Position numbers and translations under genes: made by a program. A stretch of 64,000 nt of DNA from Eledone cirrhosa (taxonomy: Eukaryota), in the NCBI GenBank assembly GCA_964016885.1, contig CAXHJY010001510.1, positions 1 to 64,000 of the forward strand. The letters run 5' to 3'. Below are positions 21,958-30,530 of this stretch, piece after piece. The notes under the pieces are model-generated. The model searched no databases. It was given only the letters and a program-made list of their open reading frames with translations, and was not told where the DNA came from. Each line of letters opens with the position of its first letter. Within the stretch, counting starts at the first letter, position 1.

Positions 21958-22403
21958 ATATTGTTATACTTTGGGAGGGTCATGTTGCCAATAAGAAACA
22001 CACGCACCAGTTGCTTTCACTTCAATTTATTATAATAAATTTAAAAATTTAGGAATTTATAAATTTTCGGTTGGTTGGTTGGTTGGTTCCACAACCAGAT
22101 GGTTGTTTATATATTGTCAAAGTTCTTTCGTCACATATTCTGTGACCTCTTCAGTGGCTGGGGATTATTTTTTTGTTTTTTGTGCCTCTCCTTTGTTCTG
22201 TCCCCAGTCACTGAAGAGGTCACAGAATGTGTGACGAAAGAACTTTGACGATATATAAACAACCATCTGGTTGTGGAACCAACCAACCAACCGGAAATTT
22301 ATAAATTCCTAAATTTATAAATTTATTGTAATAAATTGAAGTGAAATCAACTGGTGCGTGTGTTTCTTATTGGCAACATGACCCTCCCAAAGTATAACAA
22401 TAT
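21958..22403. repeat. Fold-back inverted repeat, arms about 205 bp, 36-bp spacer
   Basis: 21958-22164 is the reverse complement of 22201-22403 with few mismatches. It lies between (TA)n tracts. Confidence 0.93.
22207..22249 (+). ncRNA. Minimal type I hammerhead, with an inverted partner at 22116-22158 (-)
   Basis: GUCA CUGAAGA G GUCAC AGAAUGU GUGAC GAAAG AA CUU UGAC. Confidence 0.75.
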
Positions 22404-22477
22404 ATATATATATATATATATATATATATATATATATATATATATATATATATATATATATATATATATATATGCAG

Positions 22478-22865
22478 AGGTTATATTTCATTTGTTGGAA
22501 TTCAAAAAGCTTAAACATTTTTATAACTGATATAAAGCACTCAACTAATTAGTGGAGTAAATATACAATATATTAACAAATGGAAATTATATTTATAAAA
22601 CCATATTTATTTTATTATACATATTCCTAGGGCCACCAAGGCAAATTATGGTGCGCGTTCATCAGATAAAATACAACTATCCAGGAAACTCCAACCGTCA
22701 AGGTTGTCTTTTTTCAGGGTATGTCAATATTTATTTATAAAACAAATCTGTATTGTATTTTATCTGATGAAAGCGCACCATAATTTGCCTTGGTGGCCCT
22801 TGAAATATGTATAATAAAATAAATATGGTTTTATAAATATAGTTTCCATTTGTTAATATATTGTA
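22478..22865. mobile_element. Family B short element with an internal inversion (arms about 22567-22676 and 22753-22863)
   Basis: Inverted arms are visible. Homologous to 25590-25855 and, more distantly, to 30160-30620. Confidence 0.8.
22756..22821 (+). ncRNA. Type I hammerhead ribozyme (family B)
   Basis: UAUUUUAU CUGAUGA AAGCGCACCA..UGGUGGCCCUU GAA AUAUGUAU A AUAAAAUA, with an 8-bp stem I. The inverted copy at about 22607-22673 has GGAA instead of GAAA. Confidence 0.75.
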
Positions 22866-23074
22866 TATATATATATATATATATATATATATATATATAT
22901 ATATATATATGTATATATGTATATATATATATATATATATATATATATATATATATATATATATATATATATATATATATATAAATATATATATATATAT
23001 ATATATATATATATATATATATATATATATATATATATATTAGAATTGGTGCTCTGAAATAGCCATATATATAT

Positions 23075-23308
23075 GAATGTATATATAGTGCATTTTGCAA
23101 TACACTTTATGCTTAATTAAAAGCATTTCGAAGACCTTATGCTATTGTTTTAGAGTAGTGACAGACTGACTTACTTTAATTTCAGCAAACTGTTTGCTGA
23201 AATTAAAGTAAGTGAGTCTGTCATTACTCTAAAACAATAGCATAAGGTCTTCGAAATGCTTTTAATTAAACATAAAGTGTATTGCAAAATGCACTATATA
23301 TACATTCA
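23075..23308. repeat. Near-perfect palindrome, arms about 116 bp, 1-nt loop at 23191
   Basis: ...ACTTTAATTTCAGCAAAC T GTTTGCTGAAATTAAAGT...; flanked by (TA)n. Confidence 0.93.
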
Positions 23309-23571
23309 CACACATATATATATATATATATATATATATATATATATATATATATACAGTATTTATGTATCGAGAGAGAGAAAAAAAGAGGATAGGTGAT
23401 ACATATAGTTATTTGCCAAGTAGCGTATGCCAAAGTTGCTCGATACTAGTGCCGGCAGTATTAAATATTCGATGTGTTAATATTTAGTGGGCTAGAGAGT
23501 TAGCAGAGCGTAAGCACGTGGGAAAGTAAGAAATCGGAGAATAGACCGTTAAAACATGTTTATTTAAAACA

Positions 23572-23611
23572 GCACCTACGTACGTTTCGCCCAGTTGGGC
23601 TTCTCAAGGGC
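23572..23611 (-). ncRNA. Type I minimal hammerhead ribozyme, U3-A8 core variant, in the PLE 3' region
   Basis: Minus strand reads GCCC UUGAGAA GCCCA AC UGGGC GAAAC GUAC GUA GGUGC. Stem III is palindromic (ACGUACGU), the cleavage triplet is GUA, and AAUAAA follows shortly after. Confidence 0.75.
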
Positions 23612-27059: not shown

Positions 27060-27480
27060 GCATTTTATTTATTTATTTTATTTATTTACTCATTTCATTT
27101 ATTTATTTTATTTATTTTATTTATTTTATTTATTTATTTTATTTATTTACTCATTTCATTTATTTATTTTATTTATTTTATTTATTTTATTTATTTATTT
27201 TATTTATTTTATTTATTTATTCATTTCATTTATTTATTTTATTTATTTTATTTATTTATTTATTCATTTCATTTATTTATTTATTTATTTTATTTATTTA
27301 TTCATTTCATTTATTTATTTTATTTATTTATTCATTTCATTTATTTATTTTATTTATTTTATTTATTTATTTTATTTATTCATTTCATTTATTTATTTTA
27401 TTTATTTTATTTATTTATTTATTTATTTATTCATTTCATTTATTTATTTTATTTATTTTATTTATTTATTCTTTCTTTTC
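27060..27480. repeat. (ATTT/ATTTT)n microsatellite; (AAAAT)n also at 21395-21538
   Basis: Direct inspection. Confidence 0.9.
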
Positions 27481-28681
27481 ATTCATTGGTTTCCACTCTT
27501 TCCGTTCCGCCTTTGCCCCCCTTCCCCCTCCCCTTCCTCTCCCACCTTCTCCTCCTTCCTTTCATCATTTGCATCGTCATCATTACCATCATCATCATCA
27601 TCATCATCATCGTCGTCGTCATCATAATCAAGATCATCGTCGCCATCATCATCATCATCACCATCGCCATCGTCACCATCATCACCACCGCCATCAGCAT
27701 CATCACGACCATCATCACCACCATCACCACCATCATAATCAATCGTCCCCATAATGCTCATCTTTTTCTTCATCTCCCCCTGACCCCTCCCGCTACCGCC
27801 ACCTGGTGGTGTCCAGCAGAAGCAAGCGGGACAATCGTCGATGCATTTCCAACTGAACTGGTACTCATCAGGACGATCGCTCCATTCTTGCAACTGCTGG
27901 ACTTTGAAAATAGGCGAGAATATATAGTTTTCTCGTCTGTGTAAATGAGGTGATTAATCACATTTGTATATGAAGCTGTATAACTTGGCTCAACATAAAA
28001 TAGAATAGAAGTAGAATTTAGCTTCGAACATAGCTGCATACAGATATGTACTGGAATTTTGAAATTCTAAAGAAATACGGTATGTTTTATAAATAAACAT
28101 TTAGAAAGCTGTAGCTATGCAAAAAACACAGGCAGCTATCGTCACCCGATGGTGTCCAGTAGAAGCAAGAGGGACAATCGTCGATGCATTTTGAACTGAA
28201 CTGAACTGGTTCTCATTAGGACGATCGCTCCTGCTCTTGCAAATGATGGACTTGAAAACAGGTACAAAAAATGTGTACACACACATACGCATATCTAAAT
28301 AAACAACACAATGCACTCTATCCGTATACGTGAGAAGAAAATGAAAAGAGAATGGAAAACATGCAAAATTGTCGACATAATAACTTCCTTTATCAAGGCG
28401 TGTGGCCTGAAGTGGTTAGATAATTGGATTCACAATCTTGAGGTTGTGAGTTTCGATTCCTGGACCGGGCGATGCCTTATGTCCTTGAGCAAGACACTCT
28501 ATTTCACGTTGCTTCTTCTACCTGGAGTTGCGACCGATAGATAGTATTAGCAACTGGAAAGACCAACGGAAACATTGTTTCCTCGGTCCGATTTGACAAA
28601 GTCGATCGATATATATATATATTATCAGCGGAGCCAAACGACGTACCTTCTGTGTTTTGCTAAAAAGCTTCACATTTTGTA

Positions 28682-28852
28682 ATTGGCAGTATCGGTAGAG
28701 GGTCGGACATGCTTTCCAGCATAGTTACGTCCTTTTACGTTCAAATCCCGCCGAGGTTAACTTTGCCTTTCATCCATACGGAGGTCGATAAAATAAAGTA
28801 CCAGTAATGTACTGGGTAATTGCTGGCCTGGTTCCAAAAGTAGAAACAATTA
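28682..28852 (+). mobile_element. tRNA-derived SINE (same family)
   Basis: Same head, central domain and tail. Confidence 0.82.
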
Positions 28853-28945
28853 TCTACTAAACAGGAGGCTGAAAGTCATTGCCACTAATGAGCTGGATGA
28901 TCACCTTTAGATTAAAGCCGACATATACTCTTGTTATTAAAAGTA

Positions 28946-29487
28946 CTAGCAGAAAAACCACTATTCGGGTGGTTTTCTGCTAGCATGTGTAGTGTGTATA
29001 TTCATATTATACACAGGTATATATACAATGTAGATATGATACATCAAATAAAATCGTAATTGAACGAAGACGTTGTTACACTGTCTTATGTAATCAGTAA
29101 AGTAATCCATGATAGATTAAAAAAAGACGATATTATATATAAACTGCATTAGGAGAAAATTAGTGACAGAAAATTAGTATGTTTATTTAAGTAATCGCCA
29201 CCGGAAGTGTTGACATCACACACTCTCTCTTTCTATATATATGGTAGTTGAAGTGGTGGTGGCGGTGGCAACGATATACCGGAAGTGCAACTTTGAAAAG
29301 AAGTCAATTTTAAATTATTTATTTTTACGAAATTATTTTTGTTTACGAAATTTAGTCGATAAATTATGTAATATTCATTCATTATTTATTCAAAGTAATT
29401 CAACTTATTTTACTAACGGGATAAAAAAAAACAAAAAAACATAAACCGTACGCAAGTCCCGCAGACCTTCCTTTATTATAGTTTAGA
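28946..29487 (-). mobile_element. Non-autonomous Helitron (about 542 bp)
   Basis: The minus strand begins A|TCTAAACTATAATAAAG. It ends with the hairpin GCAGAAAACCAC-CCGAATA-GTGGTTTTTCTG and CTAG|T. These are canonical TC...CTRR ends in an AT target with no TSD. Confidence 0.7.
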
Positions 29488-30159
29488 TTTATTGAATAAT
29501 TCATGCACATTATATAGAACGCACCTACACATTCTACTTTTCACCCACTCCTCTCTTTTGATATATAAACACACACACGTATACATACATATACATATAT
29601 ATATAATATATATATAAGAGAGAGAGAGAGAGAGAGAGAGAGAGAGAGAGAGTGAGAGTGAGAGAGAGAGAGAGAGAGAGAGAGAGAGAGAATCATGACC
29701 GCGGTGCCGAGCGGTTTCAGCTTATGTGTTGTTCTGAATTGCAAGCCATTTGATTAAAGGTTTCCCCGGTCTAAACAGCGCAGACTTTCTCTCTCTCTGC
29801 ATATATATATATATATATATATATATATATATATATATATATATATATATATAATATATATATGTATATATAATATATGTATATATATATATATATGTAT
29901 ATATATATATATATATATATTATATATATATTATATATGTATATATATAATATTATATATATATGTATATATATATGTATATATATATATATATATATAT
30001 ATATATATATATATGATATATGTATATATATATATATCTATATTATATATATATATATATATATATATATATATATATATATATATAATATATATATATA
30101 TATATATAATATTATATATATATATATATTATTATATATAATATATATATATATATATA

Positions 30160-30530
30160 CAATATTAAATAAATGGAAACTATATTTATAAAACCATATT
30201 TATTTCATTATATATATTTCGGGGATATCATATTAACAATATGCTATGCCTTCCTCAGACAAAATACAATATAAACAGTTTTATAGATAAATAGATTCGA
30301 CATACCGTTATAACACCGACTTCCATTTGAAGAGGTTTAGACTGCCAGCCTAAACCTCTTCAAATGGAAGTCGGTGTTATAACGGTATGTCGAATCTATT
30401 TATCTATAAAACTGTTTATATTGTATTTTGTCTGAGGAAGGCATAGCATATTGTTAATATGATATCCCCGAAATATATATAATGAAATAAATATGGTTTT
30501 ATAAATATAGTTTCCATTTATTTAATATTG
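30160..30530. repeat. Near-perfect palindrome, arms about 185 bp, centred near 30345
   Basis: ...CATTTGAAGAGGTTTAGACTG C CAGCCTAAACCTCTTCAAATG...; the right side continues into the family B tail to about 30620. Confidence 0.93.
30424..30489 (+). ncRNA. Type I hammerhead, with an identical inverted copy at 30201-30266 (-)
   Basis: UAUUUUGU CUGAGGA AGG...CCCC GAA AUAUAUAU A AUGAAAUA. Stem I keeps pairing through G-U substitutions relative to family B. Confidence 0.68.

Follow-up and report, generated by a model that had tools for sequence, protein, structure and literature searches.

Hammerhead-bearing palindromes attributed to Penelope-like elements in a 64-kb stretch of probable cephalopod DNA

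Described PLE insertions and the palindromes of the window

Penelope-like elements (PLEs) that carry an endonuclease (EN+ PLEs) are described, in passages of PMC3846280 and PMC8557442, as having an inverted pseudo-long terminal repeat (pLTR), an optional tail on one side and palindromes at their junctions. Pairs of minimal hammerhead ribozyme (HHR) motifs lying 100-700 bp apart on opposite strands are ascribed to truncated PLEs in the corresponding part of PMC4209133. The in vitro work on PAc, the Poseidon element of Anolis (Frangieh et al. 2024, PMC11167929), reports cutting in AT-rich DNA, cleavage and extension of both strands, two start sites that bound the tail, and insertion for which HHR cleavage is unnecessary. 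In the twin priming of L1 (Ostertag and Kazazian 2001), as outlined in the review PMC9148063, internal priming by the second strand of the target, on the RNA already used by the first, results in a head-to-head inversion. We analyzed a 64,000-nucleotide stretch (contig CAXHJY010001510.1, positions 1 to 64,000, forward strand; the whole stretch is referred to as the window), which contains eight palindromes, several of them with HHR motifs pointing outwards. We are highly confident that these palindromes are a PLE-derived insertion structure.

An earlier reading of the same DNA, the original prediction, had named five palindromes. All five were found at the coordinates given for them, with arms 90-99% identical, and three further ones (P23, P63a, and P63b) were added. 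In the order of their positions, the palindromes are the following:

P0, family A, 4267-4380 (4267-4462 with the tail): arms 53/54 identical, 6-nt spacer, centred inside helix I
P20, 20458-20569: arms 45/50 identical, 12-nt spacer; older, with an HHR related to family C
P1, family C, 21958-22403: left arm 21958-22164 (-), right arm 22201-22403 (+), identical in 196/207 columns, 36-nt spacer
P2, family B, 22567-22863: left arm 22567-22676 (-), arms 106/110 identical, 76-nt spacer
P23, 23074-23308 (23041-23308 with the extension): arms 120/126 identical, 1-nt centre, (TA)n on both sides
P3, family B, 30160-30530: arms 184/185 identical, 1-nt centre at 30345
P63a, family A, 63333-63434: arms 34/35 identical, complex junction with a nested short fold-back, tail on the right
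P63b, 63621-63747: arms 60/60 identical, 7-nt spacer, adjoining P63a, extension on the left

The right arm of P2 has 76 nt of extra upstream sequence compared with the left arm, and three of the arm differences in P23 fall at the TA edge. In four of the eight palindromes the centre measures at most 7 nt. At least three HHR-bearing families are represented, with many single-arm copies. Separately, palindromes made of, or lying around, microsatellite sequence were seen at 30775-30960 and 60911-61077.

The arms are truncated pLTRs inverted head to head, with a tail at one end, a minimal type I HHR and an AT-rich or (TA)n target, all of which are features of EN+ PLE insertions. The proposed origin of the palindromes, as PLE insertions reduced to a minimum and retaining a pLTR that is inverted and truncated at its 5' end, is supported, and the structure itself is already published; what the window holds is this known insertion structure in new families. 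The EN+ PLE unit, in the passages of PMC3846280 and PMC8557442 that describe it, has in common with the palindromes the inverted pLTR, the junction palindromes, the single tail and the (TA)n targets, whereas the palindromes lack an open reading frame (ORF), being two pLTR stubs, have tails of 33-100 instead of 30-40 nt, and come with 14 HHRs in 64 kb. With the minimal HHRs of metazoan PLEs (Cervera and de la Pena 2014, PMC4209133, in the part on motif structure) they share the type I topology, a palindromic helix III, a predicted dependence on dimers and the dual motifs on opposite strands, while host and families are different; the string 'mollus' is absent from the main text of that paper (supplements aside). 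Non-LTR retrozymes, according to passages of bioRxiv 10.64898/2026.07.22.740005, are likewise type I HHR repeats that code for no protein and stem from the pLTRs of PLEs, but they form head-to-tail tandems, whereas the palindromes are inverted pairs accompanied by single arms and do not qualify as retrozymes. As a separate observation, an HHR-like family identified by eye, which fails our filter, has two direct copies about 345 nt apart (27833-27885 (-) and ~28165-28225 (-)), a partial, retrozyme-like tandem.

A literature search on Penelope hammerheads in octopus returned nothing on these elements, and from 2023 onwards only the PAc paper was relevant. The words 'hammerhead' and 'palindrom' each occur 0 times in the main text of a paper on Octopus vulgaris repeats (PMC13282606; supplements aside).

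Hammerhead motifs in the arms

The window was scanned with a descriptor for the type I motif written from the HHR core, and 30 local shuffles served as the control. The scan gave 14 matches, 11 of them with the exact core, as compared with a mean of 0.37 (maximum 2) and no exact core in the shuffles. For the whole window Rfam listed 407 rows, the best 150 of which include no hammerhead, and all 22 rows for 21900-22870 are likewise free of it; its miRNA matches were rejected as hairpin or microsatellite noise. The motifs of P1, P2, and P3, and a tract next to that of P1, are located as follows:

P1 HHR cores: 22211 (+), with the predicted cut after 22245, and 22154 (-)
P2 HHR motif, intact: 22756-22821 (+), predicted cut after 22813
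P3 HHR cores: 30432 (+), with the predicted cut after 30481, and 30258 (-), with the predicted cut at 30209
Polypyrimidine tract followed by AG: 22165-22207 (+), the AG ending 3 nt before the P1 HHR core

In the five originally named palindromes the exact CTGANGA core, pointing outwards, is kept in all ten arms. Two good HHRs are present in P3 alone; the full filter was passed by only five of the ten arms. The GAAA box has become GGAA in the left arm of P2 (22665), helix I is missing from the left arm of P0 (4320) and contains a mismatch in that of P1 (22154), and the arms of P20 have at most 2-3 helix I pairs each (the left arm counted by eye). P23 and P63b contain no exact core and no recognisable HHR. 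An intact core with three helices in both arms, as required of active HHRs, was found in P3 only. Nor is the centre uniformly just 5' of the ribozyme, as had been claimed, since the distances from centre to core are 3.5, 16.5, 27-31, 49-50, and 87 nt.

Helix III is a self-complementary 4-9-mer in most of the HHR matches, and helix I varies in sequence between the families with its pairing kept. Judged by these sequence features, the combination of helix I with a palindromic helix III is the dimer-type design that PMC4209133 describes for PLEs. The isolated motifs folded no better than shuffles (z from -1.1 to +0.3, 7/7), which is expected for motifs of the dimer type. The tract at 22165-22207 is likely a retained 3' splice site, i.e., an intron end at helix I of the P1 HHR, and a parallel case is described for Penelope of D. 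virilis in a passage of PMC4209133.

Single HHR-bearing arms of further families were observed at 3832-3902 (-), 8510-8565 (+), 20141-20200 (-), 41204-41341 (+), and 56702-56737 (+), and the 64 kb hold at least six sequence-distinct HHR types.

Outer ends, family copies and the origin of the inversions

The most informative feature of the palindromes, absent from the original prediction, is that their outer ends are unequal. In seven of the eight, one arm carries a tail (33-100 nt), whereas its partner always breaks off earlier, at a fixed point. The outer ends mostly lie in (TA)n, so that target duplications cannot be read; the ends of P20 could not be assessed. The tails and extensions with defined lengths are:

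P0 tail: on the right arm, to 4462, 82 nt
P1 left-arm extension, a putative tail: 21902-21957 (-), 56 nt, with (TA)n at its end and no second copy in the window
P2 left-arm tail: 22475-22566 (-), 92 nt, homologous to the tails of P3 and C25 (see below), ending in (TA)n
P23 one-sided extension: 33 nt
P3 right-arm tail: 30531-30618 (+), 88 nt, ending in (TA)n

The tail lengths of P63a and P63b were read by eye from the flanks, and the short arm of P0 adjoins a 23-nt fragment of family A. In families A (nine arms aligned) and B the tails are common element sequence, and the extensions of P1, P23, and P63b, which are single-copy in the window, are taken to be tails as well. Besides these, near-identical 50-nt pieces with (TA)n on both sides are present at 9257-9310 and 54344-54395, and are possibly tail-only insertions.

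Public runs were aligned to 30160-30620 at 85% likeness (4 of 13 listed), which gave 4,215, 711, and 16 contigs and 33,514 raw reads; depth derived from contigs is not copy number. These data bear on whether the palindromes are artefacts of assembly or of fold-back reads. The arms of P3 and P63b are identical or nearly so, and no record listed bridges P3's own centre under a 31-letter rule, as an artefact would have it. However, a 90-nt contig of depth 11, falling under this rule, spans the P3 centre (63 letters on the left, 21 on the right, 4 differences), and 15 raw reads from another study contain a symmetric two-HHR junction in another copy. A chimera would moreover mirror tail and flank, whereas the second arm stops exactly at the short end of the family. 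Mismatches between the arms had been proposed as an argument against artefacts, and indeed several were found in each of five palindromes. We consider an artefact extremely improbable: the class of palindromes is real, and P3's own junction is likely so.

Amplification of a palindromic master unit as a whole, be it a TA-targeting miniature inverted-repeat transposable element (MITE), a foldback DNA element or a palindromic non-autonomous element, would agree with the TA flanks, with the outer ends shared by P2 and the copy C25 (~90% alike), and with two contigs of data set X1 that span the P3 centre with 2-4 differences. Yet the centres vary within a family (P2 versus P3, P0 versus P63a, and 22 different joints among those listed), the unequal outer ends are not terminal inverted repeats, and single arms are common. 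Neither the equal terminal inverted repeats nor the fixed interior of MITEs and foldback elements was thus observed, and a master unit, already largely refuted by the variable centres, is in our opinion highly unlikely.

The single-arm copies in the window end at either the tail end or the short end, which means that the short end is used without a hairpin. Both ends are family-wide: behind 30538 the sequence changes to TA in 5,325 raw reads, and in three runs there are contigs that continue to 30607-30617 and meet TA shortly beyond. At the other side of the arm, the folded depth in X1 stays level between +32 and -12 (counted from the core) and declines further upstream, in successive 15-nt steps, to 73%, 39%, 14%, 3.6%, and 0.9%. 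Both P3 arms extend to -87, where the family depth is 0.9% of the core depth, and the nine arms of family A all stop within ~9 nt upstream of the core or earlier. The relation between 5' end and HHR that the original prediction implied is therefore upheld in part: depth does fall upstream of the core, but divergence can mimic such a fall, and the joints vary in whether they keep the cores.

Altogether, 22 distinct head-to-head joints were collected from the public data, 15 of 25 in one table plus 7 from 12 of 21 in another, after 3 duplicates and 2 go-back rows had been dropped. Among these listed joints both cores are kept in one, one core in five and none in 16, in a detection that is biased toward the conserved part downstream of the core. 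Their asymmetry is at most 10 nt in 8/22 and exceeds 30 nt in 5/22. Of the 44 arm starts in these listed joints, 24 fall just past the predicted cut site (-2 to +20); a reading of this cluster as a sign of cleaved-RNA templates was rejected, since only that part is conserved across subfamilies and the joints listed are a subset. Depth over the core is about 1e6 and over single joints ~13, which would point to arms numbering in the tens of thousands, although such depth does not measure copy number. No locus emerged when metagenome and viral contigs were scanned for the pattern. Within family B, reads on 30220 and 30470 reveal subfamilies in which helix I, helix III, and the downstream part are constant and the helix II sequence is swapped.

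Some head-to-head copies have arms that do not overlap. These are a public joint (30271-to-30549), a copy at 57659-57745 recognised by eye, and the following one:

C25, family B, 25588-25852: inverted tail piece 25588-25659 head to head with the main arm, intact HHR with the core at 25753

In C25 and in the joint 30271-to-30549 the tail piece starts ~19-21 nt past the short end. C25 is ~90% identical to P2, whose outer ends it shares, and lacks the left arm of P2.

Our favoured reading, held with moderate confidence, is that each palindrome is one pLTR insertion into (TA)n, probably with both target ends priming complementary DNA (cDNA) on one RNA. A PLE protein acting in trans would cut both strands of AT-rich DNA. 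One target end would start reverse transcription (RT) at a distal site, giving the tailed arm, and the other at a proximal site, giving the tailless arm; the two starts are modelled on those described for PAc in vitro in PMC11167929. Both cDNAs would halt at a common 5' limit of the RNA, or close to it; this limit would usually lie in the ~50 nt upstream of the HHR or just beyond the HHR. The two would then be end-joined head to head, at times with a few snap-back bases. A tailed cDNA stopping early would yield non-overlapping arms of the C25 type, and the HHRs would be dimer-type passengers. With one start site per target end, the expected product is a 5'-to-5' junction between an arm with a tail and an arm without one, as is observed. 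The coupled 5' ends, with centres of at most 7 nt in 4/8 and the P3 arms meeting where family depth is 0.9%, indicate that a single RNA was likely the source of both arms, or that one arm was copied from the other. The step from the double extension by PAc to inverted repeats is our own inference, and is not drawn in the passages concerned of PMC11167929.

The second of these options, snap-back or self-priming, had been put forward in the original prediction together with template switching. Here a single PLE cDNA would fold back and copy itself, and the endonuclease would trim the second arm at the short end, a model related to the proposal in the relevant passage of Arkhipova et al. 2013 (PMC3846280). 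It would account for the near-symmetric centres in 4/8 palindromes, for the joints with small asymmetry (8/22), and for P3, whose arms are alike while unlike most family reads; P63a and the site 49901-49912 indeed contain micro fold-backs, C25 may have arisen by deletion from a palindrome like P2, and the tail is ascribed to endonuclease resolution in a passage of PMC8557442. However, non-overlapping head-to-head arms cannot be copies of each other, single arms also end at the short end with TA, and 5/22 joints are highly asymmetric. The 1-nt centres of P3 and P23 would also seem too short for a priming loop. Snap-back is thus a live rival that alone explains neither the one-sided tail nor the non-overlapping arms, and we regard it as possible but rather unlikely, while leaning slightly towards double priming as the main route. 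The one site at which the P0 arms differ is polymorphic in family A, both letters being found among the other copies, and suggests that two templates were used or that conversion took place.

The head-to-head copies whose arms share no sequence resemble the products of L1 twin priming. In L1, however, the twin-primed arms are non-overlapping and internal priming is opportunistic, whereas the palindromes have two fixed starts and, in most cases, overlapping arms. In the literature on PLEs with twin priming we found, by title and abstract, no paper on the PLE mechanism, although subscription papers (Arkhipova 2006) may state the model.

A PLE remnant lies between P2 and C25:

Decayed, 5'-truncated PLE 3' end: 23370-25433 (-)

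Its open frame, 23980-25428, has at its end a GIY-YIG-like domain with a CxCx5C motif in front of it. At 23577-23608 there is a variant of the HHR. With the Cys motif before GIY-YIG, the remnant looks Neptune- or Nematis-like in sequence and not like Poseidon. The endonuclease falls into an Atlas cluster in which 31% of the members have GIY-YIG (score 0.95; 3,666 relatives), and Pfam found GIY-YIG, below the cut-off, in 1/6 longer relatives; of the homologue searches one was without a match and another gave one match. The pLTR of the remnant shares no DNA with any palindrome family. An Asn/Gly-rich stretch at 24440-24700 (-), between a thumb-like part and the endonuclease, is absent from relative P0001 and recalls the N-rich inserts that a passage of PMC3846280 describes in Adineta Penelopes.

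Several observations weigh against the favoured reading. No palindrome family is physically linked to an ORF within the window, and Pfam detected no RT in the six longer endonuclease relatives scanned. The tails are mostly longer than the published 30-40 nt. The upstream fall in depth may be due in part to subfamily divergence, and depth taken from contigs does not count copies. C25, which retains 6-7 letters matching the inner end of the P2 left arm, may be a P2-like palindrome after the loss of one arm. The P0 polymorphism is a single site and fits neither one-template model, and the short fold-backs at 49901-49912 and inside P63a are true ones. The fold-backs themselves, of 6 nt at 49901-49912 and ~19 nt at 63385-63420, were observed at 5' truncation points of family A. 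Inverted pairs of the reverse type, tail to tail with the 3' ends inward, were seen at 39030-39160 and 4244-4289; they possibly reflect insertion into the AT-rich end of an older copy.

Read-through RNA, genomic setting and implications

Since the HHRs point outwards, transcription in either direction produces the sense HHR after its own complement. The original prediction expected ribozyme folding to compete with formation of double-stranded RNA (dsRNA). This was not borne out: the predicted hairpin wins by 62-113 kcal/mol. Forcing helix I in the full transcript costs 68 kcal/mol in P0, 64 in P20, 71 and 62 in P1, 91 and 96 in P2, and 113 in P3, and its probability was 0.000 in the full-transcript rows where it was computed. 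In read-through RNA the HHRs are hence predicted by folding to be buried in the hairpin, the ribozyme being silenced rather than competing. With predicted energies of -74 to -340 kcal/mol, the hairpins would be plausible substrates of ADAR or Dicer if transcribed. No RNA run is among the public runs listed for 30160-30620, which is evidence neither for nor against expression. In the pertinent passages of PMC5625713, heavy editing is reported for Penelope in lizard and for palindromic Harbinger repeats in frog, while octopus shows exceptional hyper-editing and many near-perfect dsRNA loci, octopus repeats having been left out of the repeat analysis.

A footprint of editing in the DNA arms was rejected, as there is no strand bias (G-U 8 on the plus and 6 on the minus strand; 8 transversions). 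The substitutions in data set X4 are symmetric (A>G 6, G>A 7, C>T 7, T>C 7) and uninformative, being not recorded as RNA and counted against a palindromic, strandless reference.

The window, about half of which is simple repeat (49% masked), contains an exon of a host gene:

FoxO coding exon: 50900-51301 (+), first coding exon, ~20 kb downstream of P3 (Forkhead, E 2e-12)

Among the 120 matches listed for this exon, the best near-full-length ones are from molluscs (65-69%), with no cephalopod named. By sequence, this is likely a FoxO gene of mollusc type, and the DNA is likely of cephalopod origin; the (TA)n-rich landscape would suit an octopus. The hairpins might be selected regulatory elements near FoxO, serving as ADAR or Dicer substrates or as a ribozyme switch, for which the very stable predicted folds and the octopus hyper-editing and dsRNA loci reported in PMC5625713 could be cited. 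The arms, however, decay by ordinary substitutions, including transversions and a change in the catalytic core, the family is very abundant, and from the stretch it is still 20-47 kb to the FoxO coding exon, with no exon recognised around the stretch itself (9 candidate frames around the palindromes, 0 at the Pfam cut-off). We therefore give selected regulatory hairpins very little credence.

A SINE-like (short interspersed nuclear element-like) dispersed repeat of ~170 nt, another potential source of dsRNA, has many copies in both orientations, at 7880-8075, 10075-10240, 28720-28855, 31650-32240, 39220-39575, 53610-53900, 60235-60360, and 60750-60855.

The formation of tandem and inverted PLE structures and their microsatellite bias are named as open questions in a passage of Craig et al. 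2021 (PMC8557442). The abundant ORF-less stubs offer thousands of junctions, on which double priming and snap-back give different, countable predictions. A far-reaching and doubtful extension of our reading is that fixed double priming makes PLE inverted repeats, and that tens of thousands of ribozyme-silencing hairpins, scattered by this process in an octopus-type genome, supply a large share of the perfect dsRNA behind its A-to-I hyper-editing. If this were true, the one-sided tail and the head-to-head palindromes would be solved together. Should the host be an octopus, repeats that fold on themselves may account for some of its surplus of near-perfect dsRNA, a role that palindromic Harbinger repeats have in the frog according to the passage in PMC5625713.

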